A stretch of DNA of 64,000 bases from a virus: the IMG/VR virus record IMGVR_UViG_3300009503_000022, positions 32,001-96,000 of that record. One strand, given 5' to 3'. Both the position numbers and the translations under genes were made by a program. Below are positions 45,409 to 64,000 of the stretch, in pieces. The first letter of the stretch is position 1, and every line of letters starts with the position of its first letter. The notes below the pieces were generated by a model. The model did no database searches, was not told where the DNA came from, and saw only the letters and a program-made list of their open reading frames with translations.

Positions 45409-46962
45409 TTAAAATGTTACACCAAATGTTATAAATATCCAATTAATATCTAATGTTGGTTTAATATAAAATTTAACATCTATTTGTCTCGGTTCTAAAG
45501 GATTTTGTGTAACCTCTAAATCTCTAAATTCTACAATATCGTTTCTTCTAACTACTGCTCCCAATAAGAATTTTATAAACGCTGTTATATTAGCAATAGT
45601 TTCACTACCTAAATTTCTAGTATTTATAAACGCATTTGTTAAATTTCTTATTAAATATTCAGCTAAACCATCTTTTATCCTTGTAACTTTCAATTCTTGA
45701 GTCGCTACACTTGTTGGATCAGTTGACAAAGCATGCCTAACACGAAAATCACCTGCTTCTTTCTTTTCTATTATGCATACTCCATTTGATGCCATATTAT
45801 TCTTTTCTGCTCTTGTAAAAATATCTCTTATATCTTTAAACGATATAATAGATTTACCTGAAATTGGCTCTGCCCAAGTATAATTAGGATTACAAATTAT
45901 ACCTGCTAAAGCAGCCGCCAAATATGAACCATCTACAGTATAGTCTGTATTATTAATTGTATAAATCTGATCAGAAGGAGATAAATAAGCTACTCTATAA
46001 TGTTTAATAGATGTAGCTGCAGTTATATAATCATTAACATCAGTTGAATTTATAGGAGCCCCTATAATTGAAATTCTAAATTTCCTTTCAAGTAAAGAAG
46101 ACATTTGATCAACATGATTCTTTAAATACGAAATCAAACTATTTCCTGCTTCTAATCCCTTCATCAAAACTATAACATAACATCTCTCATTTTTTAAAGA
46201 ATCTATTGCTTCTTGCAAAGCAGTTACTGTATCATCTTTTGCTTGAACACATAAAACATAAGAAGCACCTTGTTGTTGACATATCTTCGCTCCTATTGAT
46301 AAAGTATTTGTTGATATATCATTTATCTCATACACTGATGTATTATCTGGAACTGTCGTCCAATTTGGTGCAACAGTTAACACTCCAGTAGTAGTATTAC
46401 TAACGATCAACCTTTCTTGACCAACACCTACTCCTGAAGTAATTTTTACATATTTTCCTTTATATTCATTAAGCGTCATTGTTAATCCTGTTGTCAATGT
46501 ATTACTAGTTCCTCCTGTTGCAGTACCTGTTAAAATCAAATTCGGAAATTCAGGTGAACCAAATAAAGAAAATATAGTATCTTGCCTAGTAGTTAAATAA
46601 GGTGCATAATCTGCATCCCCTTTAATATAAGTATAAGTTACATAATATACACTTCCTGTTATCGGTTCATCTCCTGCAGGACTCCAATCGACTTTATCAT
46701 TTGTTAATACATAATCTGTATCTTTTACATAAGTCTTTCCAGCTTTATCTGTAATAGATATTATTTCAAATACTGGAGTCTTTTTTAAATCATCTTGACT
46801 ATTTGCTGCACCTTTTTTAACTTGCTCGACTATTGTTAAAGTCTTTTTACCTAATCCAATAATCGCTGGTATAAAAGCCCCAGGCGGCGCAGCAGGCACT
46901 GTTACATCTGCAAATTGTACATATACACCTGGTTCAGTATATTGTGGTGTAAAAGTTGGCAT
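45409..46962 (-). CDS. Contractile tail sheath protein
   Basis: YTEPGVY N-term, AAALAG, GVCII, RHALST, PRQIDVKFYIKP..INWIFITF. Confidence 0.92.
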   Translation of the reverse strand: MPTFTPQYTEPGVYVQFADVTVPAAPPGAFIPAIIGLGKKTLTIVEQVKKGAANSQDDLKKTPVFEIISITDKAGKTYVKDTDYVLTNDKVDWSPAGDEPITGSVYYVTYTYIKGDADYAPYLTTRQDTIFSLFGSPEFPNLILTGTATGGTSNTLTTGLTMTLNEYKGKYVKITSGVGVGQERLIVSNTTTGVLTVAPNWTTVPDNTSVYEINDISTNTLSIGAKICQQQGASYVLCVQAKDDTVTALQEAIDSLKNERCYVIVLMKGLEAGNSLISYLKNHVDQMSSLLERKFRISIIGAPINSTDVNDYITAATSIKHYRVAYLSPSDQIYTINNTDYTVDGSYLAAALAGIICNPNYTWAEPISGKSIISFKDIRDIFTRAEKNNMASNGVCIIEKKEAGDFRVRHALSTDPTSVATQELKVTRIKDGLAEYLIRNLTNAFINTRNLGSETIANITAFIKFLLGAVVRRNDIVEFRDLEVTQNPLEPRQIDVKFYIKPTLDINWIFITFGVTF

Positions 46963-49270: not shown

Positions 49271-50038
49271 TTATATAGCAGATAATTCTTGTCTCCAGTT
49301 TGTTGTTATCGTATTATCATCCCATTTAACTCTATAAAAATTATTATTATGATCTATTCTTATTATAGTACCTATTCTATTTGTTCCTATTCTCCTCACT
49401 TTTTCCCCTAATTCAAAATTACTAACTTTATTATCTTGATATGTATATTGTCCAATCCATTCATTCGGTTGAAACTCATCTTCAAATCTAATTTTAGCTT
49501 GCACTTCTTTAAGAATATCTTCAATTTTATTTCTCTCATCTATAGCATTTACTGCTGCCTTAATTAATTCCCTTTCATCTCTAAAACTATTATCATCTTC
49601 CTCTTCTTGTATAAATAAATTATTAGCAGTATCTCTAACTTTTACCAAAGTACTTATATGAGTAATATAATTTTCAGATTGTCCTATATCTACCCAAACT
49701 TTATTTCCAACTATTTTACGAACTATTCCTGGTTCCATATCAGGCATTGAAGAAAATACAACTTTATCTCCAACCTTTAATCTAGCACTTTTAAGCATAG
49801 GAACCCATTGTTTTGATTTCGGATCATATACCCATTCGCTTCCTTCAGGAGGAGGAGTCGTCGGTTTTGCAGGCACTTGCGATTCTATCTCTATACCTTT
49901 ATCTCGTATAACTTTATTAACCAATTCAATAGCATCTTCTTCACCATATCCATATTCATCTACAAGTTTTCTTTTTATAGCATTAACCCCTATCCCTCGA
50001 TTATACCATTTTATTATATTAGATTCTAATCCTGGCAT
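49271..50038 (-). CDS. Modular protein with two SH3/KOW-like domains (putative head cargo)
   Basis: LKVGDKV..GIV..VWVD and FELGEKV..GTI..YRVKWDD. Confidence 0.55.
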   Translation of the reverse strand: MPGLESNIIKWYNRGIGVNAIKRKLVDEYGYGEEDAIELVNKVIRDKGIEIESQVPAKPTTPPPEGSEWVYDPKSKQWVPMLKSARLKVGDKVVFSSMPDMEPGIVRKIVGNKVWVDIGQSENYITHISTLVKVRDTANNLFIQEEEDDNSFRDERELIKAAVNAIDERNKIEDILKEVQAKIRFEDEFQPNEWIGQYTYQDNKVSNFELGEKVRRIGTNRIGTIIRIDHNNNFYRVKWDDNTITTNWRQELSAI

Positions 50039-50052
50039 AATTAAATCCTCCT

Positions 50053-53000
50053 TTAATAATTTAATATTTTTCTTAAATAAGAAGCAGCTTCAAATATCTC
50101 TTTTAAATCTAATTCTTCTATAGTTTTATCCTTTTCCTCTAAATATGCATTTAATTCCATTTCTATTATCTTCTTTGAATTATCATTTATTTTACTTGCT
50201 TTAACTTCATTAAAATATTCTTTTAATAAATTAAAAGCCGCCTTTAATTTAGGATTTTTAATAAATAACCAAGAAAATGGAGCAATAAAATCTATAATCA
50301 TCTTTAATGTCTCTTTAATTCCTGCTTCTTTCTCAATTCCATAATCTAATCTAGTCTTCAATTGAAATTTATCTTCTTCTTTACTTCTAATCATTAACCA
50401 TTTTCTATCTTCCATCGGTATTAAAGTAAATTCTCCCTTTACTTTATCAGTATTTAATCTAAATTTTCTTTTCTTATCTGACCATTCTAATATCTCTGCA
50501 TCTCCAATTGCATAAGTTTCAACTATTCCTGCTCCATATTCACCTTTAGGTATTTCACCTTCAAAATAAATATAATCTACTGGATGATCCTCTGTTTCTA
50601 TAAATAAAACCTTTTGTCCAGGTTCTGGTATTTTCCTCGTAACCCCTGATTTTAAAACACCATCTTTAAATATTCTCCAATCAAAATGTTTACCTGCCTT
50701 TTTTGCATAATGCAATTGAATCCCTGACTTGCCTTCTTCTCTAATTTTAGGTTTTGGTTCAGGAGTAATATCAAAATCTCTTTTTTTCTTATATTCTTCC
50801 AATCTATCATCTTCTTGAGCTTTTTTTAAAAAATATTCGTCTTCAACTTCTTGTAAATATGTAAACTTATTAAATATCTTAACACTTGATTCCAATTTCC
50901 AAGAAGCAGTTTTCAAAAATTTAGTAGTCTTATTTTGAATATCTTTTATTATTGCAGTAACACGAGGAGGTGAAATACCTAAAATCTCTGCAATCTCAAC
51001 TTGACTATATCCTGATACTAACAAATTAAATACCTTCTTACCTACATCTGTAAGAAGATTTAATATTTTATCAAATAAATCATTTACTATTACTTTTTCC
51101 TCAGGTGAATCATACTTAGATTCAATAATATTCTTTATTTTAATAGGAACATCTTTATCTTCATATATAACATCTTCTAAACTATATGCTATTGTATTTA
51201 CTATTTCTTTTTGAAGATATAAATCTCTTATTTCATCTTTTACTCTACCATCTAATTGGTTATATAACCACGTTGAAAATTTTCCTTTTTCTCTATCATA
51301 AGTATCTATTGAATGTAAAATAATTTCATCAATAATAGAAGAAGCATCATAAAACCCTGCTTTTCCTAATTTATTTTCAAATGGATACGCTAACCTTTTT
51401 AATTCAGGATAAATTTCGTTAAATATTTTTTCATCTTTCGTTTCTTTATATCTAATCACTTTTTCATCTAAATCTTCTATTGATGATTTTTTATACAACT
51501 TTTTAAGTACTTTATCTATTTTAGCATCTTCCTTCTCAAAATCAAATAATTTATCTTCATCTATTGGTAAACATACTAATCCTGTTTTTCCTGATAAACT
51601 ATACGGAACTCTTAATCCACCTGCTCTATGTAACGTACTAGTATCTAGCCTACAAGTATTTTCCTTTTTCGTAACTCCAGTAGTCAATCTTTTATCATTT
51701 TTATTTTCTATATATTCTTCTAAAGCTAATTTAATTGCTGTTCTAGCTTCATCTACATCTATTTCTTTTTTTAATATACCATAAACGTGAAATCCTTTTG
51801 AACCAGAAAATACTATCTTAGTATCAACTACATTATCCATTGTTTCTATTAAATCTTTAACCTCAAAAACTATATCCTTTAAATCATCCCAAGAAAATCC
51901 TTCTTTTGGATCTAAATCAACATATAAAAATGGAGTAGTATCCTTAAGAGAAAAATGCCATTCAACATTTCTACCATTATTTAATTTATCAAAATCTTTA
52001 ATATTTATCGGTTTTCCCTCTATCTTTCTTTGAACTATAGTATCATCAACTTTCTTAAATAAAGTCACATCAAGATCATACTTTAAATAAGTTTCTATAA
52101 TATCATCTTTAACAGTATCATAATACAAAAAAATCTCACCTTCATTAAGTCCTTCTTTATAAAATTCATTTGGTTCTACTATTATAGTTTCTGGATGCTT
52201 TGGTTTATAAGCATAAATTAAACTACTTTCTATTTTCATTGATTTACCTTCGTGATAACAAGCATTTTGTTCAAATTCATTAGTATAAATTGTCCATCTA
52301 TTTCTACCTTTATTTTTGGATTCATAAAGTGCTTTATCTGCTTTAGTAAATGAATCATCTATATTAGATTCTAACGGAGCAGCTCCTAAACTTATAGTCA
52401 CTGGTATTTCAGTTTGTTTAGTTTCTTCTTCAACTGTATTTCTTATCAATTCCAATAATTCTTTTAAATCCTCTTCATCATCTAATTCAATAAATATTAC
52501 AAATTCTTCTCCGCCCCATCTAACTATATTTTCTATATCAAGACTTTTAATTAAATCGGCAACTGTCTTTAATACCTCGTCGCCTTTATCGTGACCATAT
52601 TCATCATTAATTTGCTTAAAATGATCTATATCAGTTAAAATTATATAATTATTTTCTTCTAATAATCTTTCTTCATTATCCTCTAACCAATGCCTTGAAT
52701 ACAACCCAGTTAAAGCATCTGTATATAATCTTTTTTTCAATTCCTCGACTTCTTTTTGTAAATCTTTATTTTCATCTATTTCTGATTCTATCTTTCTTAT
52801 TTCAGTCGGATGAACTTCAGATATTATAGATCCATCTTCTAAAGGTTTATCCCACTTGACTACATAATCAACATCATAAATTGTTCCTCCTCGCTCTTCA
52901 GGAGCTATATCTATTATTGTTCCTGTATTATCAAAATTAATTGCCTCTATTTTAGTTCCCTTTTCATAAACTCCTTTTCGCGATTGAAAAGCTTTCAAAC

Positions 53001-56000
53001 GAATCACTTTTTCATTTTTATATATATTCTCATCAAATTTTTTCTTTCTTAAATTTTCATCTAATGTTTCTACTACATTATAATATTTATCTATAATCTT
53101 ATATATTTTCTCTGGATTTCTTAAAAATACAAATTCATCTCTTATTTTTAATTGATCAAAAGTAGTTATTTCCCCTTCTTCTATTCCATGTCTTTTAAAT
53201 AAACTTGAATAACATTGTTTTCTAACTAAATTTACATATTCGCTTTCTTTCTTTAAAAATTCATCTAATTCAGGATATTGCTCTTTAACATCTTTAATTT
53301 TCTTTTCTAAAACATCTAAATATTCTATCATTTTATTCCAATAAGGTTCATAAGAATCGTCCCATATAACTATCTTATTTTTTCCTGTATTCTTACCTAA
53401 TACAAGAGATTTGTGAGCATCTGTAGGAATTTTTCCAATCCCTACAGTTGCTGTATGTCCTGTATTTTTTAAATAAATATCTATAAATTGCTGTCCTAAT
53501 TTTTTGGCTTCTTCTATCGTAATAGGAATACTTATAAATATATTATCTCCACCTTCAAATATTACCTCTCCATTATACTTAGTAATTATTTCTATTATTT
53601 CTTTATTAGCATTTTTTATTTGATTAGATATATTTTTTGCTACTTCTGTATCTTTATCATAAATGGCTTCTTCTACTCTATCTCCAATATCATCACCATC
53701 AATGGCTATATAAACAAGATTACCTTTTTCTGATCTCTGTTTACCAATTTGAGCTTCTTTATGAAAACACTCTTTTCCTTCTGAATACAATACTATTCTA
53801 TCTGGTGAAATAGGTCCAACAACCACAGCAGTTCCTGCTATTCTTAAAGTATCTTCACCGGTTATATCTTTATAATAAACACCCCATTCCGGATCGTGTC
53901 TACTTTTTAGTCCTCTAGGAATTTGCTCATCATGTTTCCAATATAAAAATTTTCCTTCTACATCATCAACATAAGCACCTAAATCGACTAACATTGCATA
54001 ATCTGGTAATAAATCTAAACCTGAAACATCTACTTTATAAATATATTTACCAGGAAACTTTCCTGGTTCTTTAGAAACAAAAACAGATTCTTCTGGTAAC
54101 CAACCATAATCAAAAAATTGTTCCCCAGCTTCTGTTAATCCTTTTGTTTTTCTACCCACTAAACCCTCTTTCAAAATTATTTCTGGAGGAACATTTGTAC
54201 TATGATATAAATATTTAATAGCTTTCTTTTCTAATTCTTCAATCTTTTTCATTACTCCTTTATGAATAAGTCTAGGTTTCATATCCTTTATTTTTTGTAA
54301 AACTTCTTTTTTTAACTCATATAACATCTTAATTTCATCACCAGATGGAGAATATTTAATTGACCAATTTATTTCTCTTACGAGTTCCCATAAATTCCAA
54401 ATTATTAAATCAATAGTTTCACCTGTTGCTTTCATATTTAAAATATCTTTAAAATCTTCTTCTAATTCACTTATAGGTTTACCAATTTGAGCTTCTTTAT
54501 GAAAATATTCTCCTAACTTCATTTGTTCTCTTAATTCCCATATTTTAAATAATTCTGATTCTTGAGCTAAACTTGGACTCCATTGCATTCTTAATCCATC
54601 AAAATGAATCCAATCAACTATTTTATCTATAACATAAAATTTTTCAAAACCTTCTTTTGAATAAGCTTCTTCACCTTGTTTAATCAATTCTTCTATTTTC
54701 TTTATGTTTCTTTTTATAGGTTCTACTTCAACTCTTGTTGTGCCTCCAGTTTTTAATTTATTTAAATGATAAATTAATTCTTCTAAAATTTTATCTAATT
54801 TATCATCATCATAAATACCCTTAGATGCATCAATATAAACTTTTCTTAAATCAGTAAGAAATATTGCTTCTTTGTTTAAAAAAGCTCTTAATTGTTCTAA
54901 CTTATTATTATTTCCATATTGAAAAATATTTGCAATTCTAGACATTAACCAACCCTTTTCCTCAAATCCAGGTATTTGCTCAAGCCTTAAATCTTCTGGA
55001 ATTACTTTCTTATCCTCTCTATATCTTTCTATTCTTGGTTTTCTAATTATCCCTGTCATTTTATCTTCTATTTGTATCCATTTATTATCTTCAAACTTAT
55101 ATGCAGGTCCTTTTTTTATATTTACTTCTTCACCTTGTACTTCTACAATACAAGGTTCTTTAAAAGGATCAACCCAAATTCTACCATCTTCATCTTCAAA
55201 TACTTTATTTCTTTCTGCCCATTCTATAAATTCTAATCGTTCCTTATCAGTAAACCCTGTCCCAACCTTACCATTAAGCCTAAATATCCCTTCTTTATCT
55301 CTAAATGAAGTTAATATTGCGCCCATCTGTTCAGGATGCTTTTTACTTCTTTCTACTGCAACTACAACTAAATCAATAGATAAAATCGGTTTTACCTTAA
55401 CTATTTTATTATCATAATAAATTATAAGTCCTTCATAACCATATTTTTGAGGTTGTACAACCTTATCCCATAATTCGTCTACATCATTTAAATCAGCATT
55501 TTCAAAATATTCTGCTGGCTTTACATACTTTCCTTTGCTAAACAAATTTCTTAATCCACTAATTCTATATGATAAATCTTTATCTTGCCAATCAATTCCA
55601 TCTATACTTATAATATCAAATACTATTATCCTTATTCTTTCTTCATCTTCTTTAGTTTTCGGAGCCTTTAATAAACTCTGAGATTTTAAATAACTTAATG
55701 GAATACCATCTTCACTAACTCCATAAATTTCTCCAACTCCTATAAATTCTTTTAACGGTTTATTTTTTAATAATTCTGTAATTTCATCCGTAACAGGTAA
55801 ATCATAACGAATTGTACCTGCTCTAGTAACTGTTATTGTTCTACCATCTTTATATTCTATTCCAACTATTTCTCCATCTAATTTTACCGATATTGTAAAT
55901 TTCTTACCTTTTAATTTTTCTCTCAATTCATCTATAGTATAAAACTTCATCGACATTCTTTCTTTATAATCACTTACTATAGATGAAATTGGATTTTCTT

Positions 56001-56031
56001 TATCTATTTCTTTTTTAAATGCTAATATCAT
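50053..56031 (-). CDS. Polyprotein: ATP-dependent ligase + ART-like + mCpol + 2x SH3-like + GGDEF + LigD-type primase-polymerase + sigma-70 + LigD-type phosphoesterase
   Basis: KLDG/GEIY/VFDI/EGLII/VGTGF (ligase); YLYHST..EGL..ISPDRI (ART-like); IDGDDIG..GGDN..TVGIG (mCpol); DALTGL..DIDHFK.IND.YGH..GGEEF; VDLDP..SGSKGFHV..RVPYSL (AEP); GKFSTW..GYSQVEIAEILGIS (sigma); EYKKKRDF..QLH..HFDWR..EDHP..FEGEIP.GEYGAG (PE). Confidence 0.9.
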   Translation of the reverse strand: MILAFKKEIDKENPISSIVSDYKERMSMKFYTIDELREKLKGKKFTISVKLDGEIVGIEYKDGRTITVTRAGTIRYDLPVTDEITELLKNKPLKEFIGVGEIYGVSEDGIPLSYLKSQSLLKAPKTKEDEERIRIIVFDIISIDGIDWQDKDLSYRISGLRNLFSKGKYVKPAEYFENADLNDVDELWDKVVQPQKYGYEGLIIYYDNKIVKVKPILSIDLVVVAVERSKKHPEQMGAILTSFRDKEGIFRLNGKVGTGFTDKERLEFIEWAERNKVFEDEDGRIWVDPFKEPCIVEVQGEEVNIKKGPAYKFEDNKWIQIEDKMTGIIRKPRIERYREDKKVIPEDLRLEQIPGFEEKGWLMSRIANIFQYGNNNKLEQLRAFLNKEAIFLTDLRKVYIDASKGIYDDDKLDKILEELIYHLNKLKTGGTTRVEVEPIKRNIKKIEELIKQGEEAYSKEGFEKFYVIDKIVDWIHFDGLRMQWSPSLAQESELFKIWELREQMKLGEYFHKEAQIGKPISELEEDFKDILNMKATGETIDLIIWNLWELVREINWSIKYSPSGDEIKMLYELKKEVLQKIKDMKPRLIHKGVMKKIEELEKKAIKYLYHSTNVPPEIILKEGLVGRKTKGLTEAGEQFFDYGWLPEESVFVSKEPGKFPGKYIYKVDVSGLDLLPDYAMLVDLGAYVDDVEGKFLYWKHDEQIPRGLKSRHDPEWGVYYKDITGEDTLRIAGTAVVVGPISPDRIVLYSEGKECFHKEAQIGKQRSEKGNLVYIAIDGDDIGDRVEEAIYDKDTEVAKNISNQIKNANKEIIEIITKYNGEVIFEGGDNIFISIPITIEEAKKLGQQFIDIYLKNTGHTATVGIGKIPTDAHKSLVLGKNTGKNKIVIWDDSYEPYWNKMIEYLDVLEKKIKDVKEQYPELDEFLKKESEYVNLVRKQCYSSLFKRHGIEEGEITTFDQLKIRDEFVFLRNPEKIYKIIDKYYNVVETLDENLRKKKFDENIYKNEKVIRLKAFQSRKGVYEKGTKIEAINFDNTGTIIDIAPEERGGTIYDVDYVVKWDKPLEDGSIISEVHPTEIRKIESEIDENKDLQKEVEELKKRLYTDALTGLYSRHWLEDNEERLLEENNYIILTDIDHFKQINDEYGHDKGDEVLKTVADLIKSLDIENIVRWGGEEFVIFIELDDEEDLKELLELIRNTVEEETKQTEIPVTISLGAAPLESNIDDSFTKADKALYESKNKGRNRWTIYTNEFEQNACYHEGKSMKIESSLIYAYKPKHPETIIVEPNEFYKEGLNEGEIFLYYDTVKDDIIETYLKYDLDVTLFKKVDDTIVQRKIEGKPINIKDFDKLNNGRNVEWHFSLKDTTPFLYVDLDPKEGFSWDDLKDIVFEVKDLIETMDNVVDTKIVFSGSKGFHVYGILKKEIDVDEARTAIKLALEEYIENKNDKRLTTGVTKKENTCRLDTSTLHRAGGLRVPYSLSGKTGLVCLPIDEDKLFDFEKEDAKIDKVLKKLYKKSSIEDLDEKVIRYKETKDEKIFNEIYPELKRLAYPFENKLGKAGFYDASSIIDEIILHSIDTYDREKGKFSTWLYNQLDGRVKDEIRDLYLQKEIVNTIAYSLEDVIYEDKDVPIKIKNIIESKYDSPEEKVIVNDLFDKILNLLTDVGKKVFNLLVSGYSQVEIAEILGISPPRVTAIIKDIQNKTTKFLKTASWKLESSVKIFNKFTYLQEVEDEYFLKKAQEDDRLEEYKKKRDFDITPEPKPKIREEGKSGIQLHYAKKAGKHFDWRIFKDGVLKSGVTRKIPEPGQKVLFIETEDHPVDYIYFEGEIPKGEYGAGIVETYAIGDAEILEWSDKKRKFRLNTDKVKGEFTLIPMEDRKWLMIRSKEEDKFQLKTRLDYGIEKEAGIKETLKMIIDFIAPFSWLFIKNPKLKAAFNLLKEYFNEVKASKINDNSKKIIEMELNAYLEEKDKTIEELDLKEIFEAASYLRKILNY
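53739..54505. repeat. 29-bp exact direct repeat (53739-53767 and 54477-54505) encoding FHKEAQIGK
   Basis: gtttaccaatttgagcttctttatgaaaa occurs twice, 738 bp apart and in frame. Confidence 0.95.
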
Positions 56032-56189
56032 TTTGTCAATATTATTAACATTGGAGTAGTATCACTTGGTACAACTGCAGTTATTACCCAACCTGCATCC
56101 ACAAGCGTTTTTAAATCACTAACTGATCCATCAACTGTATCTTTAGTATTACCTTGCCTATCTGATTCTACTATTTTTACATCAGCCAT
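56028..56189 (-). CDS. Small hypothetical protein (53 aa)
   Basis: Manual: MADVKIVESDRQG..; SD AGGAGGAG; ATGA overlap with the polyprotein start. Confidence 0.65.
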   Translation of the reverse strand: MADVKIVESDRQGNTKDTVDGSVSDLKTLVDAGWVITAVVPSDTTPMLIILTK

Positions 56190-56234
56190 TTCGCTCCTCC
56201 TACATCATAATTTAAATTAGTCAATATATTTATA

Positions 56235-56411
56235 TTATTCGAAATTTAAATTTTCTTTTCGTCTAAATTCCAATTTCCTCTTATATCTTCTTGCTTGAGA
56301 AATAGTAGGAAAACACTTCTTCATACCCTCGTCTGTAATTACACACCAACGTCTTCCTTCTTCGCCTTCTTCTTTCTTTATCCTTAATTTTTCTTGTCGT
56401 AACCAATACAT
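56235..56411 (-). CDS. Small basic protein (58 aa)
   Basis: Manual: MYWLRQEKLRIKKEEGEEGRRWCVITDEGMKKCFPTISQARRY..; SD AGGAG. Confidence 0.55.
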   Translation of the reverse strand: MYWLRQEKLRIKKEEGEEGRRWCVITDEGMKKCFPTISQARRYKRKLEFRRKENLNFE

Positions 56412-58472
56412 TTATATCTCCTCTTTAATCAATTCTTTAGCTGCATTAACAAATAAATTAAAATCATCAACTTTAACTTTTTTACTTATTCTAGAAAATA
56501 TCTCATCCATATATCCTTCAATAATACTATCATAATTTATATCTATTTTTTTATTATCTTCAGTCGCTATTTTCTTTAATAAATTAGCATCTTCAATAAC
56601 AGCATTAACAATATCGTCTAATTGAATATTTGCTTTAATAAATTCTTTAATAGACGATTCTTTTTCAATAGTATCTTTAATCTCTTTTTTTATTTTCTTT
56701 TGAGTTTTATCATCAAATTCTTTTTTATACTTATCCTTTGCTTTTAAAAATTTTTCTATTTCTTTATCTAACTCTTTTTTCTTTTCTTCAGTTACTTCTT
56801 CATCTACCTTAATTATTTCAGTTGGATGAACTTCAGTAATTGTTTCTCCTGCTACTGGAGTATCCCATTTTATAATATAATCTATATCTCCAGGTTTTTC
56901 ATCATTTTTATAAATTACATATCCCATAAGCCCATTCGTCTGTAATTGAACTCTATCATATACTTCAAATTCGTCTTCTTCTATAGCTGATGTTAATAAT
57001 AATCTATATTTCATTACATTTTCATCTTTATACTCGTTCATTTTAAATTTAAACTCAGTATTATCATCTAAAGATGCAGTCACTATTCCTAATCTTGGAT
57101 CAAATCGTCTATAAGTATAAATATCAGGACTATTTTCAAATTGAAATTTATCACCTAATTTTAATTCACTAAACTTAACATATCCTTGTTTTTGATATAT
57201 TTTATCGTAATCTTGAATAGATTCTTTTTTCTTCATCTTTTTATCTTTTTTTATTTCTTTATCATAAGATTTTTGTAATTTTTTTTCAGATTTAGATTTA
57301 TCTATTTTCCTTTCCATATTCATATTAACACCCTCGGATAATTCTGGTAATTCTCTAAATTTAACAGTAGAATTATCAGAAACATTTAAAGTATCTATAT
57401 TAATAGTTGTATCTGATTTTCTATTTAATGAAGATCTTAAACTTGCTATTTTCCTCAATCTATTAGGATATTTCTCTAATAAATCTTTAATATTGCCTCT
57501 TAAACCAGTTACATCCCCTTCTATATTTGTAACATTTCCTTCAATATAAGAAACATCTCCTTTTATGTTAGATACATCTCCTTTTAAATAAGAAACATTT
57601 CCCCTTATATTAGATACATCTCCTACAATATTTGAAGCATCTCCATATATATTTGAAGCATCTCCATATATATTTGAAGCATCTCCATATATTTTAGATT
57701 TATCCCCTGTTACATTTTCATCATTAATCAATCTACTTTTTTGTGATTTTATTCTTAATGAAGACTTTTTCGTTCTTTTAAATTTTTCAAATAAATCTGG
57801 ATTTTCACTAATAAACTTATTTACACCATCCATAAACCATACATGCCACCCAGAACCTTCTGTTTCTAATTTCTTTTTTATACTTTCCCAACCTTCTTCA
57901 AAATAATATTCTGCTTCTTTTTGAGCTTTTTTATCACCTTTATAAGCAGGATCTATAATTAAACTATCCATAAGATCAATTGCATATTCTTGTATTGGAG
58001 TTTCAAGTTTAATAACATCCGATTTTCTTAATTGCATATTTCCTCCTAAATTTGCAAAAGATTTCTCTAATACATCTTGAGGATTTTCTATAACCATTTT
58101 ATCTCGAGGAACTTTTTGCTCTTCAGGAAATACAAAAAGATCATCTTTTAAAATAGTATCATTTTGAGATTTCCTTTCTAATAATCTTTTTACAAAATCT
58201 CTCCATTCTTCCTTATTTTCTTCTACCATTCCATCAAATATTTCTTTTGCTTTATCTTCTGTAACATCATAAATATTCATAAAATACTTTACTATTTCTG
58301 AATCTATATCATCGGCAATTTTTTCTAAAGTAAATTCGCTTCCTGTATCTAATTCAGGATTAGATGATATATCAGGATTAGTTTTAAAATAATCCAACTC
58401 GTGAAATTTTCCTGAATCATGTGGATATTTAATCTCATCAAATCCACCTTGAGCTTTACGTCTCAAATTCAT
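56412..58472 (-). CDS. Second modular polyprotein-like head protein (beta-helix repeat, tandem SH3-like domains)
   Basis: GD(A/V)SNI heptad repeat; EVHPTEI domain shared with the 1992-aa protein; many K-x-A/S linkers. Confidence 0.6.
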   Translation of the reverse strand: MNLRRKAQGGFDEIKYPHDSGKFHELDYFKTNPDISSNPELDTGSEFTLEKIADDIDSEIVKYFMNIYDVTEDKAKEIFDGMVEENKEEWRDFVKRLLERKSQNDTILKDDLFVFPEEQKVPRDKMVIENPQDVLEKSFANLGGNMQLRKSDVIKLETPIQEYAIDLMDSLIIDPAYKGDKKAQKEAEYYFEEGWESIKKKLETEGSGWHVWFMDGVNKFISENPDLFEKFKRTKKSSLRIKSQKSRLINDENVTGDKSKIYGDASNIYGDASNIYGDASNIVGDVSNIRGNVSYLKGDVSNIKGDVSYIEGNVTNIEGDVTGLRGNIKDLLEKYPNRLRKIASLRSSLNRKSDTTINIDTLNVSDNSTVKFRELPELSEGVNMNMERKIDKSKSEKKLQKSYDKEIKKDKKMKKKESIQDYDKIYQKQGYVKFSELKLGDKFQFENSPDIYTYRRFDPRLGIVTASLDDNTEFKFKMNEYKDENVMKYRLLLTSAIEEDEFEVYDRVQLQTNGLMGYVIYKNDEKPGDIDYIIKWDTPVAGETITEVHPTEIIKVDEEVTEEKKKELDKEIEKFLKAKDKYKKEFDDKTQKKIKKEIKDTIEKESSIKEFIKANIQLDDIVNAVIEDANLLKKIATEDNKKIDINYDSIIEGYMDEIFSRISKKVKVDDFNLFVNAAKELIKEEI
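57490..57720 (-). repeat. 21-bp coding tandem repeat (7-aa GDASNIY)
   Basis: Three perfect copies at 57628-57690 within about 11 degenerate units. Confidence 0.9.
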
Positions 58473-58727
58473 TTATACCTCCGTCAAATTACCCGGTATT
58501 GGCTGAGGATATGTCGTCACAGACGCATTATTAACCCTTAAATGAGAATTTATATAATCAGCTAATCCTGAAGAAATAGCATCTATTAAACCATCTAACT
58601 CATCAGGTAATTTAGATTTATCTTCTATTAGATTACCATTACTATCATAACTTTTCTTATAATATCCTTTAGATAATAATGAATTTTTTATACTAAACTT
58701 TATCATTTGTGCAGTAACACCAGGCAT
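58473..58727 (-). CDS. Hypothetical protein
   Basis: ORF track; strong SD. Confidence 0.55.
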   Translation of the reverse strand: MPGVTAQMIKFSIKNSLLSKGYYKKSYDSNGNLIEDKSKLPDELDGLIDAISSGLADYINSHLRVNNASVTTYPQPIPGNLTEV

Positions 58728-58744
58728 TTTTAAAAATCCTCCCT

Positions 58745-59044
58745 TTAAATTATACCACTATAATCCATCCAAACTGAATCGAGATTAAACCCTGTTACTT
58801 CTATCTTACAAGTACAACCAGGATGAGTCAATGTATAAATAGGTGCTTCATATTCAGCATCTGAAATAAAATCTTCTAATGGAATTTCTTCTTTATTATA
58901 TTCCTTACAAATACGACAAGAATCTGGTTCTGCATGAAAAATAACAGTATCATATCCTTCATCTAAAAGTCTTTCTAACTCTAATAAAGTTTCTTCTACT
59001 GGAGCTTTAGCATCTATTTTAATCCAATTATTTAACATTTTCAC
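58745..59044 (-). CDS. Stand-alone MuF (Mu gpF)-like Cys/His domain protein
   Basis: DSCRICKEYN..THPGCTCKI resembles the CxxC..HPxCxC motif. Confidence 0.65.
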   Translation of the reverse strand: MKMLNNWIKIDAKAPVEETLLELERLLDEGYDTVIFHAEPDSCRICKEYNKEEIPLEDFISDAEYEAPIYTLTHPGCTCKIEVTGFNLDSVWMDYSGII

Positions 59045-59124
59045 TTATTAATTAATAACGTTACTTATCGTTATAGCAACGAATCCCTACGTATTCTTAA
59101 AAATATAAATATTTTTTATTTATA

Positions 59125-59571
59125 TTACTCTTCTCGAGGCCACTTTCCTGTAGCCGCCTCTTCTAAAGCAGCACAGAATCCTTCTGGAGATTCTGCCCAA
59201 GATTTTGCTTTTTCTACACATTTATCAAAATCTGCACCATAACTTTTCCAAGTATTCTTAATTCTTTCTTCAGACCATCCTTTAAAATATTCTTTAGCAT
59301 AAACCTCTTTTACTGCTCTATTTACTAAAGCTGATTTATGTATAGTAGGTTTTTCAATCTCTTGTCCTGTAGTTTCTACCTCTCTTAACTCCCTTTCAGT
59401 TTCTCTTGCTAAACTCTCCCATATTTCATTTGGATTAGTCACATATTTCTTTTGAACAGGACCTTCATATCTAAATCTTCTACCAATATCACTTTTACTA
59501 ATTCCTGGCTTTATTTCAGGAACTCCTTTTTCTGTTTGTTTCGTATCTGCTATTCTATATAAATTTTTCAT
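59125..59571 (-). CDS. Hypothetical head-associated protein
   Basis: C-term DFDKCV..PEGFCAAL..ATGKWP; K/R-x-A linkers. Confidence 0.5.
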   Translation of the reverse strand: MKNLYRIADTKQTEKGVPEIKPGISKSDIGRRFRYEGPVQKKYVTNPNEIWESLARETERELREVETTGQEIEKPTIHKSALVNRAVKEVYAKEYFKGWSEERIKNTWKSYGADFDKCVEKAKSWAESPEGFCAALEEAATGKWPREE

Positions 59572-59724
59572 TTTACTTACCCCCTTATTTTTTATTTTCT
59601 TCACTTAATAAATAACTTTTAAAAATAATATTTTTATTACATTTTTTACAATAATGACATTCTTTAACTTTACCATTATTTATTTCTTTTCTTATTTTTA
59701 TATCTTTATTACCACAATCACATT

Positions 59725-60246
59725 TCATTTTTGCATTTTACTGACCATTACAGCCTGAGCTTCTGCAATTCTTTCTTTTTCCTTATCTGATAAAATAAAT
59801 ACATTTGCTAAATCTGAAACTTTATTATCATTTAAAAATTCTTCCTTTTCCTCAGGCGTAAAATAACTTGCAATGGTATCAGCATTACCTCCTTTATGAG
59901 AAATATTACCTAAAGACTTTTTTATAAGTTCATCTGCACTTGTTATTACTTTAGATTTATTTTTATCATTATTACGATCAAATACTACATCTGGTTCTAA
60001 ACCTTTATTTTGCTCTTTTAATTGATTTTGATTAAAAACAAATACATCGTCAACAATGTTTTTCTTATTATTGTTAATATTTCTTTTACCATCTATTTCG
60101 TTTATTAAATCTGTAACTATCTTAGCAATCATATTTACATTTTTCTCTAAATCATCTATTCTTTTTTCTAATCTATTTATATTACTTACTTTTTCCATAT
60201 CTTGCGCATATTGCTTAAAATCTATTTTCTTTTCATAAATTTTCAT
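59725..60246 (-). CDS. Hypothetical coiled-coil protein
   Basis: SD GGAGG before ATG 60246. Confidence 0.5.
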   Translation of the reverse strand: MKIYEKKIDFKQYAQDMEKVSNINRLEKRIDDLEKNVNMIAKIVTDLINEIDGKRNINNNKKNIVDDVFVFNQNQLKEQNKGLEPDVVFDRNNDKNKSKVITSADELIKKSLGNISHKGGNADTIASYFTPEEKEEFLNDNKVSDLANVFILSDKEKERIAEAQAVMVSKMQK

Positions 60247-60292
60247 ATTACAATCCTCCATCAATTTTAAATTCATTATATTATAAAATTAA

Positions 60293-61036
60293 TCAACGAC
60301 CCATTGATTGGAAAATATCAAGAATATTTAAAAGACCTCTATTAAGATTAGCTCCTATTGATATTGGCAATTGTAACGTACCTAAACCTACTCCTTGATG
60401 CATAAAATTCATTTTAGAAACAGATAACAATTCATTATAAACATCCATTATATCTTTCATTGCATTTCTTATTTTTTCCCCTCTATCAATAGTCAAAGAC
60501 AATCCCATGTCACTATAACTAAAATCTGTTATCCCTATCCCTAAATATTTATACATACAAAATGTTATTTGTGCACTCATTATCAATACATTTTCATATC
60601 CTTGAGGAAAATTATCAATTGTATAATCAGTCTCAGGAGGATAAATATTAAAATTATATAAAGCTAACTGCAATGCCATTCGATAAATATCATCTGTCGT
60701 ATCTTTTCTTAATATCTCAGGAAGCCATCCTCTAAGCCAATTAGTTAATCTCATTTCTCTAGGAGTTAATGGAAAAAATGTCAAATAATATTGAGTCTCA
60801 ACGTTATTTACACTATCAAAAAATTTAATTAAATACCATAAATTTGTTGATGCACTTGGATCGGTATCAGTATATGTTGTAACCCATATACCATTCGAAG
60901 TTTTAGAATTTATAGTTGCAATTAATGAATAATCTTTCTGCTCAGTTACACTTCTATAAATCCTTATCTTATCATAATTCGTAGTATTTACTATTTCTGC
61001 AGGAATTGTCCAATAAATATCTACAGACAAGTTCAC
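60293..61036 (-). CDS. Head-tail adaptor / neck protein
   Basis: FN3-like N-term; FNIYPP..DFSYSDMGLSLTIDR. Confidence 0.6.
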   Translation of the reverse strand: MNLSVDIYWTIPAEIVNTTNYDKIRIYRSVTEQKDYSLIATINSKTSNGIWVTTYTDTDPSASTNLWYLIKFFDSVNNVETQYYLTFFPLTPREMRLTNWLRGWLPEILRKDTTDDIYRMALQLALYNFNIYPPETDYTIDNFPQGYENVLIMSAQITFCMYKYLGIGITDFSYSDMGLSLTIDRGEKIRNAMKDIMDVYNELLSVSKMNFMHQGVGLGTLQLPISIGANLNRGLLNILDIFQSMGR

Positions 61037-61043
61037 TCTCTCC

Positions 61044-61532
61044 TTATTTTACAATTTTTACAGGTAAAGCATATAAACCTTCTTCGGTTTTTATCAAAGG
61101 AACTTTTGCCCATCTTTTCTTACTTTTTACATATCCCATCAATTGAACATGTTGCTTTTTATTATCTCTTTCAAAATTAGGCAAAACACCATACGGAGAA
61201 ATCCTTAAAAATTGTTCAATTTTATCTTTTACACCTAATACAAGCTTTATAAGAATACTTTCATCTTTACTTATTTGATTTTCTTCATGATTAATTACCG
61301 CAATAGCAACTCCCTTCTTAGTCTTAAATTCTTTACTATCATCGGATAATTCGAATTTAATCTCCTTTATTTCCTTATTAACTAAATTACCCGTATCGTC
61401 TTCTTTTTCTTTTTCTAAAAGAATTATTTTAACATTATTCTTTTGTTCTTCAGAAATACCATCAGTATTCCATAAAATAATAATATTCTGATCGGTACGT
61501 CTGAATACTCGAAGATTTAAATTCGTTTCCAT
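61044..61532 (-). CDS. Hypothetical protein
   Basis: ORF track. Confidence 0.5.
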   Translation of the reverse strand: METNLNLRVFRRTDQNIIILWNTDGISEEQKNNVKIILLEKEKEDDTGNLVNKEIKEIKFELSDDSKEFKTKKGVAIAVINHEENQISKDESILIKLVLGVKDKIEQFLRISPYGVLPNFERDNKKQHVQLMGYVKSKKRWAKVPLIKTEEGLYALPVKIVK

Positions 61533-61544
61533 CTACGCCCTCCT

Positions 61545-62255
61545 TTACTTTAATTCTTCTAGTCTTTGTTTAATTAATTTTTCTACACTTTTATCGTATG
61601 AAGCAATCTTCTTTAACCACTCTTTATCATTTGATTTCAATATTGCCCATTTTTTTGCTAAAAATCTTTGATTTAAAAATTTCTTAATGTCTTCTGGTGC
61701 TTTTGCAATTTTTTCTGCTTCTATCTTTTTAGCTTTTTTAATTTCTTCATTCTTATTAAGTTCTTTACCAATATTATCTATAGTTTCTTGAGTTTTTTCC
61801 ATTGTTTCTTTTATAATTTTAGTAACTTTTTCTTCCTTAGCACCAAAAAAATCATTACTTTCTACAATTATACTACCCTGATCTTCTTCATCTATACCTG
61901 GAGTATAATCGACACTTTCAATATTTGGCTTAATAGTTTTACTTTGATTTTCTACATAAGGCTCATTAGATATATTTTTTGAAGAAACTCCTACTTCATC
62001 TACAAACCTTTCTATACTTGGATTATTAGAATCAACAGACTCTTTCACCACTTTTTGTGTATTATCTTCTGCTTTTGGAATTTTTCCAGTATATACCTTA
62101 ATCAACCCTTTTTCTAAAAATTTTAAAATCGTAGGTGAACTCTTAGCAACATCATCAGGAATATCTACTGATATTCCATTAGGAGATATACTCCCATACA
62201 TTTTTTCATTATCATATAAAAGAATAATTGTATTTGTTAAATTTATAAATTTCAT
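61545..62255 (-). CDS. Hypothetical protein
   Basis: ORF track. Confidence 0.5.
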   Translation of the reverse strand: MKFINLTNTIILLYDNEKMYGSISPNGISVDIPDDVAKSSPTILKFLEKGLIKVYTGKIPKAEDNTQKVVKESVDSNNPSIERFVDEVGVSSKNISNEPYVENQSKTIKPNIESVDYTPGIDEEDQGSIIVESNDFFGAKEEKVTKIIKETMEKTQETIDNIGKELNKNEEIKKAKKIEAEKIAKAPEDIKKFLNQRFLAKKWAILKSNDKEWLKKIASYDKSVEKLIKQRLEELK

Positions 62256-62280
62256 ACACTCCTCCTTTTAAATTCTTACT

Positions 62281-62559
62281 TTACTTTTTTAACCAATCTA
62301 CTCGATTTTCATCTGATTCTTCAATTTTTTGCTCACTATCAGAAATTAATTTCTTTTTCTCGACTGATTTTACTAAATTTAATTGTTTTTCTGCATTTAA
62401 TATATTCTCAGAACCTCCTAAATCAATATCTTTATACCTTGTAAAAAAATTAAACATATAACTTACATCTTTAATTTTATTACAAAACTTTATATCTAAA
62501 GCATAAGTCAATGTTTCTTCACTAAATAACTTCGATAAAATCCAACCTAAAATTCTCAT
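62281..62559 (-). CDS. Hypothetical protein
   Basis: ORF track; strong SD. Confidence 0.5.
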   Translation of the reverse strand: MRILGWILSKLFSEETLTYALDIKFCNKIKDVSYMFNFFTRYKDIDLGGSENILNAEKQLNLVKSVEKKKLISDSEQKIEESDENRVDWLKK

Positions 62560-62585
62560 TTTAAAATCCTCCTTTTTTTAAATTT

Positions 62586-62613
62586 AGGAGAGGAGAAACT
62601 AATCTCCTCTCCT
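62586..62613 (-). terminator. Intrinsic terminator-like hairpin after the capsid gene
   Basis: Perfect 11-bp stem AGGAGAGGAGA/TCTCCTCTCCT with a 6-nt loop; weak U tract. Confidence 0.65.
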
Positions 62614-62629
62614 TTAATTTTAAAATCAA

Positions 62630-63610
62630 TTACACAATTGTAAACTTGGTAATACCAGCGGTATTGTGAATACCAATACCAATCTGTTCCCAACCTACTA
62701 TATCATACTGATTTTTTGGAATATTATCAAATATCTTAACTTCAACTGCTTTCCTTTCTGGAATTCTTCCTAATTTATCAGGTGTCGTAAATACATATAC
62801 TGTTTTTGCAGGACATCTTGTAGTTACAAGCATCCTTGCTCCATATATAGAACCAAACAACCCAGTTTCAACTATTGTATTCAACGAAACCTGATCTAAA
62901 TCTGTAGAATTCCACTTTAAAATATCTGCATATTGCTCTGGATTCATCATCACTCCACCAACAATTAACTGATTTGCTAAGATCTGCTTATATGCATCTG
63001 CAAGAGCATATCTAGTTACTGAAGAAGCAGTAAATGGAGTATTAGGTCCATTTACGACTGCTGCCTCCATAACTTTAACTATCTCATCATCTTCCGCAAT
63101 TGCCATAGCAATAGCAACCCTCTCTTTACCTCTATCAAATGCAGGATATCTCCTGATTTGAATTTCTTCCCATTTTAATTCATGATCAATTGAAATTGGA
63201 AATGTAGGGAATTGCACCCTCTTTATATTTGCTTGAAATCTAGGAGCCTCTCCTCTTGCTGCAACTACTACTGCTCCAAATTCTGGAATATCCAAATCAT
63301 AAATTGGAAATTCCCCTTGAGGTATTTCATCTACCAGTAATACCCTATTTCTTCCAACTGCTACATAATCTAATCTACTCTTTAGAGGAACCTGCATAGC
63401 AAATGCAACCCTCTTTAAACCATTAGGTCCAGTAAATATAGCATTAAAAGCTTTCTCAGCTTTTTCAATCATCGCAGATGTAGGAACTACTGGCGATGAA
63501 GCTGTCCTTGAAAATCCATCTTCTCCAAGAACTGATTCAGAAATTTTTAATAAATTTTTAATAAACTCGTCTTTCTGTCTAGAAGATAAATTACTTAATT
63601 TCCCTATCAT
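62630..63610 (-). CDS. Major capsid protein (HK97 fold)
   Basis: PLKSRLDY..GR..LLVDEIPQG..P.YD, EDDE, VMMNP..YADI, G.IYGA, EQIGIGIHN; followed by a terminator. Confidence 0.85.
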   Translation of the reverse strand: MIGKLSNLSSRQKDEFIKNLLKISESVLGEDGFSRTASSPVVPTSAMIEKAEKAFNAIFTGPNGLKRVAFAMQVPLKSRLDYVAVGRNRVLLVDEIPQGEFPIYDLDIPEFGAVVVAARGEAPRFQANIKRVQFPTFPISIDHELKWEEIQIRRYPAFDRGKERVAIAMAIAEDDEIVKVMEAAVVNGPNTPFTASSVTRYALADAYKQILANQLIVGGVMMNPEQYADILKWNSTDLDQVSLNTIVETGLFGSIYGARMLVTTRCPAKTVYVFTTPDKLGRIPERKAVEVKIFDNIPKNQYDIVGWEQIGIGIHNTAGITKFTIV

Positions 63611-63641: not shown

Positions 63642-64000
63642 TTAGCAATCTAATACAAATTGCATTACTTTAGATGTTGATGTCGGTGGCACCAATACAT
63701 ATCCTAATTTAGTATTAGAAAGTGTATTAACGTTTGTAATCAACCCCGAACTATCAACATATAATTCTTGCATCGGTACATAAGTTTTAGAATCATCAAA
63801 TGTTTTTACTGTCACTAATGCTCCTGATGAATCAATAAAATAATTAAATCTGACAGTAACAATACCTTTTACAACTACTGTTAATCTGCCAGATCCATAA
63901 GCTCCAAAAGAACCGTATGTTTCATCAACATACGCATTCTTATTAGACTTAGACAATCCAAAACACTTTACATCAGAAGTGACAGCAACTATTTTATTTG
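63642..64000 (-). CDS. Head decoration / cement-like protein (5' end outside the window)
   Basis: Frame stays open to the window edge; GSGRLTV..LYVDSSGLIT..LGYV..PP; directly upstream of the capsid gene. Confidence 0.6.
   Translation of the reverse strand, partial: NKIVAVTSDVKCFGLSKSNKNAYVDETYGSFGAYGSGRLTVVVKGIVTVRFNYFIDSSGALVTVKTFDDSKTYVPMQELYVDSSGLITNVNTLSNTKLGYVLVPPTSTSKVMQFVLDC

Follow-up and report, generated by a model that had tools for sequence, protein, structure and literature searches.

A hydrophobic-x-(Lys/Arg)-x-Ala motif as the probable recognition and cut site of a gp21/assemblin-fold prohead protease in an uncultured myovirus

Head-maturation proteases determine which proteins stay in the phage particle, and in what form. 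The head proteases of T4, phiKZ, 201phi2-1 and SPN3US cut after Glu (PMC5694885, PMC10052503), and the P1 capsid protein is cut between E120 and S121 by a protease that is presumed (PMC9024508). For the gp21/assemblin fold, every phage rule established experimentally is a cut-after-Glu rule. Some phages also encode polyvalent proteins, giant multi-domain proteins for which packaging and delivery along with the DNA are predicted; the portions of Iyer et al. 2017 considered here set out their domain content, note embedded peptidases, some of them assemblin-like, and do not describe a linker code read by a separate prohead protease (PMC5512222). Here we analyse the head proteins of an uncultured phage, IMG/VR record IMGVR_UViG_3300009503_000022. 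The window, which is the whole 64,000-nucleotide (nt) stretch analysed, covers bases 32001-96000 of one 110,355-bp contig of 26% G+C (GC). We observed that a five-residue motif, a hydrophobic residue (L/F, less often I/M)-x-(K/R)-x-Ala, is enriched in the head module, and we propose that it is probably the site at which the phage's own prohead protease recognises and cuts its substrates.

A first-pass annotation of the window had described a looser linker, (K/R)-x-(A/S), at domain boundaries and N-termini of the head proteins and had read it as a cleavage code. All 26 peptide occurrences that it listed are present in the proteins it named, and 22 match [KR]-x-[AS] literally, the exceptions being RKIESE, MKIESS, IKAN and KQYAQ. 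Counted in the proteins from window position 49271 to the protease, with per-protein shuffles as the expectation, the three-residue form is not enriched (89 copies vs 82.8 expected, z 0.8). For a 1992-amino-acid (aa) multi-enzyme protein of the head region, which has 24 copies, a hand count puts about 14-15 outside Pfam domains; about half would be expected there. We also assessed 149 protease homologues, the best ones with one per 50%-identity cluster and mostly 50% or less alike. There the loose form reached 1.15-fold, all of it from K/R-x-A (1.33-fold), and K/R-x-S was depleted (0.90-fold). The observation is real, but the motif was drawn too loosely.

Two routes led to the refined motif: aligning the capsid protein with its viral-contig relatives, and the nine-residue repeat FHKEAQIGK, present in two exact copies in the 1992-aa protein. 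Sixteen of the 26 listed peptides fit [LFMI]-x-[KR]-x-A and the remaining ones do not. In the head module, taken as genome position 81271 onward, we counted 36 copies against 12.0 expected (z 7.1), a threefold enrichment, and 25 against 8.8 (z 5.5) when the capsid protein and the 1992-aa protein, its sources, were removed. The tail module (10 vs 9.1 expected, 1.10-fold) and all other genes (25 vs 24.1, 1.04-fold) were at background. Replacing the basic residue by an acidic one gave 1.09-fold, reversing the order gave 1.33-fold (not significant), and shifting the spacing gave 7 copies vs 8.3 expected. In an unbiased count of 7986 residue-class patterns the refined motif had p 1.7e-8, and the patterns ranked just above it are a product of the GD[AV]SNI tandem repeat in a 686-aa head protein. 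Of the 36 copies, 28 begin with Leu or Phe, even though the proteome contains more Ile. Ser as the motif end is weak (1.55-fold in this head module, z 2.3; 1.08-fold in the homologues), and Gly (1.5-fold in the homologue set) is not enriched in this genome. Sites also gather near protein starts: residues 1-40 contain one in 7 of 33 head-module proteins and in 3 of 111 others (Fisher p 0.0014). The entire proteome contains three copies of the longer form G-F-x-[KR]-x-A (0.45 expected), one in the N-terminal region of each of the portal, the protease and the capsid protein.

The first-pass annotation had suggested looking for a prohead protease beyond position 64000, and a gene of the gp21/assemblin fold was found there, directly upstream of the capsid gene. 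We modelled residues 1-290 of its 753-aa product with AlphaFold and 43 homologues, and obtained a predicted local distance difference test score (pLDDT) of 82.9, with core residues 54-247 above 90. The top Foldseek match was T4 gp21 (5jbl, probability 1.0, target TM-score 0.62), with herpesvirus proteases next. VIA-align Z scores were 11.2 for the varicella-zoster virus (VZV) protease, 10.7 for pseudorabies virus (PRV) and 10.1 for gp21, and 8-11 across the proteases of VZV, PRV, herpes simplex virus and human cytomegalovirus. By this model, the protein has the T4 gp21/herpesvirus assemblin fold (MEROPS clan SH: S21, S77, S80). Residues H102 and S153, in the well-modelled core, are invariant in the 43 aligned homologues, and H179 is nearly so. 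C163, C166 and C177 are invariant and C156 is conserved in close relatives; because these cysteines and H179 are conserved, the Cys cluster next to H179 is likely a zinc-ribbon-like insert within the fold, of which we know no counterpart in descriptions of gp21 or assemblin. The rest of the 753-aa protein consists of a charged linker and then helical, scaffold-like sequence with more motif copies.

A HMMER search of 1.84 billion representatives identified 2,665 proteins related to the protease domain, many being long fusions. The 149 homologues contain 593 copies of the refined motif vs 243 expected (z 23.5), and the last position is selective for Ala (2.44-fold, against 1.5-fold for Gly and 1.08-fold for Ser). 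This pattern agrees with a small P1 (S1) pocket and with cleavage after Ala. For 119 homologues, positions could be anchored on the conserved end of the fold; there the sites fall into two sharply defined clusters, immediately before the fold and 10-40 aa beyond it, with a density of 0.11 per 100 aa inside the domain vs 1.53 just after. The residue following Ala is most often Ser (20-31%), then Ala, Asn, Gly or Thr. Separately, one homologous gene (IMGVR_UViG_3300009502_000034, locus L005:4866-8348) has an insertion of ~400 aa directly after the catalytic S-M-G, starting with Cys and ending with H-N then Cys, which looks like an intein at the active site.

The capsid site F-S-R-T-A-S (residues 33-38) is kept as F-x-R-x-A-[S/G] in viral-contig relatives of 58-77% identity, in an alignment that spans 58-81%. 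Compared with gp27 of Bacillus phage G, the nearest cultured relative, the capsid protein is 32% identical and has ~42 extra N-terminal residues; the predicted cut after A37 would leave a 289-aa protein, compared with 282 aa for gp27. Two sites are kept in the portal, near residues 20 and 62. In four related loci (L007-L010), the capsid and portal propeptides both carry Q-L-G-x-G-x-G-F-x-R-x-A and differ after the Ala, as expected if the residues recognised are those N-terminal to the cut. The head loci of six related uncultured phages (30-55% GC) are enriched in the refined motif (z 2.4-3.8), and it occurs at matching places: twice at the portal N-terminus, at the protease start, after the catalytic domain and several times in scaffold-like proteins. 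Similar values were obtained for the head loci of phage G (z 2.3-3.1) and mycobacteriophage Myrna (z 3.2). In phage G, gp19 has L-V-K-T-A and V-V-K-I-A before the protease domain and L-E-K-V-A and L-L-K-I-A after it, and gp20 has L-K-K-T-A at residues 8-12; the multi-omics paper on phage G holds no cleavage data.

These data bear on the view that there is no functional motif and that the copies are chance matches in Lys-rich helical proteins. Such a view holds for the loose three-residue form, which is at chance level and for which the 22 literal matches among the listed peptides were picked post hoc from 89 copies. For the refined motif it is contradicted, and highly improbable: the five-residue form is threefold enriched in the head module only and survives removal of its source proteins, its positions are conserved across relatives of 30-55% GC, and it is both strongly enriched and sharply clustered in the homologues.

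The same comparisons speak to a code of the T4/phiKZ type, with a cut after the Glu of K-x-E followed by A/S, which would fit the peptides HKEA, KIES and KKES. Such a code has precedent, since cutting after Glu is the rule for the characterised phage proteases of this fold (PMC5694885, PMC10052503), as it is for the P1 capsid site (PMC9024508), and the GGDEF domain of the 1992-aa protein is flanked by two KIES copies. We nevertheless consider it very unlikely. The Glu of the neighbouring capsid sequence K-I-S-E-S is lost in the alignment in which F-x-R-x-A is conserved, and [LI]-x-E is enriched alike in head (z 2.9) and non-head (z 2.6) proteins. In the 149 homologues, [LI]-x-E (1.01-fold), [SAG]-x-E (0.97-fold) and A-x-E (1.05-fold) are all at background. 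We rejected K-x-E then A/S and the L/I-x-E, S/A/G-x-E and A-x-E motifs, none of which gives a head-specific signal. The T4 and phiKZ precedents invoked for the loose linker thus do not carry over as the same code: both cut after Glu, and the specificity here would differ.

We next consider the 1992-aa protein, whose gene lies between the capsid and tail sheath genes, with the portal upstream. Its Pfam domains are an ATP-dependent DNA ligase (31-341), mCpol (774-889), GGDEF (1103-1245), LigD PrimPol (1362-1515), sigma-70 regions (1538-1701) and a LigD 3'-phosphoesterase (1773-1871). They make up half of the chain, and eight of the nine motif copies lie outside them, between domains. No full-length relative was found among 5.8 billion sequences, where the protein is the only one of its kind. 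Pfam gave nothing significant on the segments without annotation. Outside this protein, residues 345-770 have a single homologue, a free-standing 160-aa protein (P0166), whose residues 3-144 align to 608-749 at 54% identity, almost an end-to-end match of the 604-760 segment. A natural protein thus has its start two residues past the predicted cut 604/605 and its end close to the site at 760, which lies 14 aa before mCpol. An AlphaFold model of residues 340-1110, built with P0166 aligned, had a mean pLDDT of 41 and is unusable for placing the linkers. At the nucleotide level, both FHKEAQIGK copies share an identical stretch of ~30 nt (approximately window 53767-53796 and 54505-54534), which could reflect a recent duplication, a recombination joint at the linker or strong AT codon bias.

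The 686-aa protein also shares modules with the 1992-aa protein. Residues 908-1100 of the latter (window 52732-53310) are homologous to residues 386-577 of the former (window 56742-57317) over ~190 aa (E 3e-19), and the C-terminal ~115 aa align as well (window 50065-50412 and 56421-56762, E 0.003), with I-E-K-E-S of the 686-aa protein opposite I-E-K-E-A. The shared parts are candidates for head-anchoring or targeting modules. By eye, a similar, small domain with K-W-D ... E-V-H-P-T-E-I may also end the 255-aa protein, for which BLAST gave no match. The 686-aa protein contains a tandem heptad array of the GD[AV]SNI type at residues ~262-330. An orthologue search for it returned one near-identical copy and one protein matching in the heptad repeat only. 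In a near-identical genome the counterpart is 679 aa long, with one heptad unit fewer; an unrelated 703-aa protein (P0168) is largely made of the same heptad repeat. Elsewhere, three other giant multi-enzyme proteins with a phosphoesterase domain have L-S-K-R-A or L-S-K-T-A repeated. One of them (P0005) has two such copies, between and after its Pfam domains, and another (P0003) directly follows a terminase and a portal of the same family.

We conclude that the refined motif is probably the recognition and cut site of the phage's own prohead protease, and that the bond cut is probably the one after Ala; cutting at the motif, the exact bond and the packaging of the large proteins are what we infer. 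The earlier interpretation, a shared signal read by a prohead protease, is kept in that the motif flanks the catalytic domain, occurs at the capsid and portal N-termini and borders the modules of the 1992-aa protein. It is altered in that a hydrophobic residue is required two positions before K/R, and in that the last residue is Ala, not Ser.

Several points weigh against cutting at this motif. The phage is uncultured and cutting is read from its sequence, and we found no virion proteome for members of the protease clade that reports ends after the motif. About a third of the 36 head-module matches are attributable to chance, and single sites without conservation are not trustworthy. The copy at 214-218 of a 236-aa protein is not conserved and is clearly no site, and the match at 1544-1548 of the 1992-aa protein is probably background because it lies inside sigma region 2. 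The 1992-aa protein has no site near its N-terminus, the first being at 363-367. Many protease homologues have the motif at residues 2-6, where a cut would free only a hexapeptide, and the motifs are mostly in predicted helices, in low-confidence models.

The placement at residues 2-6, odd for a useful cut, could mean a docking or self-inhibitory role. The motif would then be an uncut docking or capsid-targeting signal, with the scaffold, the inside of the shell or the groove of the protease as its binding partner, or else a pseudo-substrate holding the protease inactive until assembly. Predicted helicity would suit docking, and P1 DarB and the T4 internal proteins are targeted to the head by short N-terminal peptides (PMC9024508, PMC5694885). 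We regard this explanation as unlikely. It leaves unexplained that the protease domain is bracketed on both sides, that motifs occur in close pairs, and that module-border sites lie deep in the 1992-aa protein, one of them at a natural protein start. The T4 targeting peptides themselves end at a cut site, and both roles are compatible.

The motif might also be cut at another bond, after Lys/Arg, with the hydrophobic residue at P3 and the basic one at P1, or by a host or second phage protease. A cut of this kind (L-x-K, cut, x-A) is possible and would echo T4, where L/I-x-E has the same spacing as hydrophobic-x-K/R. It is quite unlikely, as Ala is the most selective position and fits a small S1 pocket as in assemblin, and the capsid and portal propeptides are alike as far as Ala and differ beyond it. 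The head-module genes scanned included no other protease gene.

If the phage's own protease does cut at the refined motif, maturation can be modelled on T4, phiKZ and herpesvirus. The head proteins would co-assemble within the prohead, where the protease would release itself through the sites on either side of its catalytic domain. It would then trim the N-terminal propeptides of the portal, the capsid protein and a number of small head proteins, break up its own scaffold part and divide the 686-aa and 1992-aa proteins at sites between their modules. Pieces such as the ligase, the 605-760 module and the phosphoesterase would in this way end up as separate internal head proteins able to leave with the DNA. 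A broader proposal is tentative, and we hold it to be possible rather than probable: that the protease clade (~2,665 cluster representatives, including Bacillus phage G and cluster C mycobacteriophages) switched from cutting after Glu to a herpesvirus-like small-residue rule, with the cut after the Ala of L/F-x-K/R-x-Ala, and uses it as a linker code that makes giant polyvalent head proteins true polyproteins. Here, this would free a DNA ligase, cyclic-nucleotide synthases, a primase-polymerase, a sigma factor and a 3'-phosphoesterase in the capsid for injection. If true, mature capsid, portal and cargo proteins would be predictable from sequence across thousands of phages, polyvalent proteins could be read as sets of separately released enzymes, and phages would be linked to the Ala-type specificity of herpesvirus assemblin.

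The genes discussed are listed in Table 1. Nearly all genes of the 110-kb contig are on the minus strand, and the phage is a myovirus, with a tail sheath (window 45409-46962) and a baseplate wedge (window 34593-36053). In transcription order, the portal is followed by four small open reading frames (ORFs), the protease-scaffold gene, the 165-aa gene and the capsid gene, and then by eight small genes, the 686-aa gene, two small ORFs, the 1992-aa gene and the 255-aa gene. The 165-aa protein has no copy of the refined motif. It resembles the phage G decoration protein gp26 in position and length, and sequence similarity between the two is not detectable. If translation of the 159-aa protein in fact starts at the ATG at 59571, its L-Y-R-I-A would be at residues 4-8.

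Table 1 Head-module genes and refined-motif copies (window coordinates unless marked as genome; minus strand shown as -).
Feature	Position	Motif (residues)	Description
Portal	genome 100421-102202		phrog_16240
753-aa protease-scaffold fusion	genome 96169-98430 (window-equivalent 64169-66430)		Just outside the window
165-aa gene, 3' part	63642..64000 (-)		Between protease and capsid genes
Major capsid protein, 326 aa	62630..63610 (-)		HK97 fold; phrog_2522 at 2.7e-31
Capsid site	63500..63514 (-)	F-S-R-T-A (33-37), then Ser	Predicted maturation site
159-aa protein	59125..59604 (-)	L-Y-R-I-A (15-19), I-H-K-S-A (88-92)	
686-aa head protein	56412..58472 (-)	3-7, 49-53, 339-343, 632-636	
1992-aa polyvalent protein	50053..56031 (-)		Six Pfam families and modules without annotation
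Site in 1992-aa protein	54931..54945 (-)	M-S-R-I-A (363-367)	22 aa past ligase domain end (341)
Site in 1992-aa protein	54865..54879 (-)	L-N-K-E-A (385-389)	After ligase
Site in 1992-aa protein	54490..54504 (-)	F-H-K-E-A (510-514)	First FHKEAQIGK copy, in stretch without annotation
Site in 1992-aa protein	54220..54234 (-)	L-E-K-K-A (600-604)	N-terminal border of 605-760 module
Site in 1992-aa protein	53752..53766 (-)	F-H-K-E-A (756-760)	Second FHKEAQIGK copy, C-terminal border of 605-760 module
Match in 1992-aa protein	51388..51402 (-)	L-K-R-L-A (1544-1548)	Inside Sigma70_r2 (1538-1603)
Site in 1992-aa protein	50905..50919 (-)	F-L-K-T-A (1705-1709), then Ser	Just past sigma-like region
Site in 1992-aa protein	50818..50832 (-)	F-L-K-K-A (1734-1738)	Before LigD phosphoesterase domain
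Site in 1992-aa protein	50323..50337 (-)	I-E-K-E-A (1899-1903)	Between phosphoesterase and C-terminal domain common to 686-aa protein
255-aa protein	49271..50038 (-)	M-L-K-S-A (81-85), L-I-K-A-A (158-162)	

Three further observations concern the head genes of the relatives. At L005:8902-10768 the capsid gene is seemingly split into a 72-aa N-terminal ORF with both motif copies, a 237-aa ORF and the capsid body, which may reflect an intron or a homing-endonuclease insertion. The portal at L012:4246-7362 is 1038 aa long, and its insert at ~344-722 matches intein-bearing PHROG families (thymidylate synthase, PhoH, terminase) and is probably an intein. Myrna gp97 (L013:8980-12615), annotated as a tape measure, has an N-terminal head-protease domain, and its gene is placed between those for portal and capsid; the annotation is probably wrong and the product a protease-headed head protein.

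When compared to T4, the locus is alike in the protease fold and in the place of the gene among the portal, scaffold and capsid genes. In T4 a short motif is likewise common to shell, core and internal proteins (gp23, gp24, the scaffold gp22, IPI-III and Alt), N-terminal propeptides terminate at it and the protease itself has sites on its flanks. The head-module proteins with a site at most 40 residues from the start may bear peptides of the kind of the T4 capsid-targeting sequences; the 1992-aa protein has no such early site. However, T4 gp21 cuts after Glu at L/I-x-E, whereas here the final residue is Ala and Lys/Arg stands two positions ahead of it. The protease here is also fused to a scaffold-like region, unlike in T4, and the largest predicted substrate is a 1992-aa enzyme chain instead of small internal proteins. 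The proteases of phiKZ (gp175), 201phi2-1 and SPN3US (gp245; MEROPS S80) offer the likeness of one motif across many head proteins, including the portal and the protease, with extra copies in propeptides and cargo, here predicted, that includes transcription machinery. Their motifs, S/A/G-x-E and A-x-E with a cut after Glu, are unlike the one here (PMC5694885, PMC10052503). In SPN3US nearly all cuts remove N-terminal propeptides, whereas here sites are also internal, at module borders.

The 1992-aa protein resembles the polyvalent proteins of Iyer et al. 2017 (PMC5512222) in joining unrelated enzyme domains, including GGDEF, in one chain and in having its gene among virion genes, in an element that has a portal-terminase system. 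For its particular domain set of ligase, mCpol, GGDEF, PrimPol, sigma and LigD phosphoesterase there is no full-length relative.

Herpesvirus assemblin cleaves the bond between Ala and Ser, with a consensus that is hydrophobic at P3 and requires Ser at P1'. The likeness to assemblin (MEROPS S21) extends to the fold, to a protease N-terminal to a scaffold, to a site directly after the catalytic domain and to a motif that ends in Ala, with Ser the commonest next residue here. The two differ two positions before Ala, where herpesvirus has its hydrophobic P3 residue and the motif here has Lys/Arg, its hydrophobic residue being four positions before Ala, and in the residue after Ala, which varies here and is invariably Ser in the herpesvirus site.

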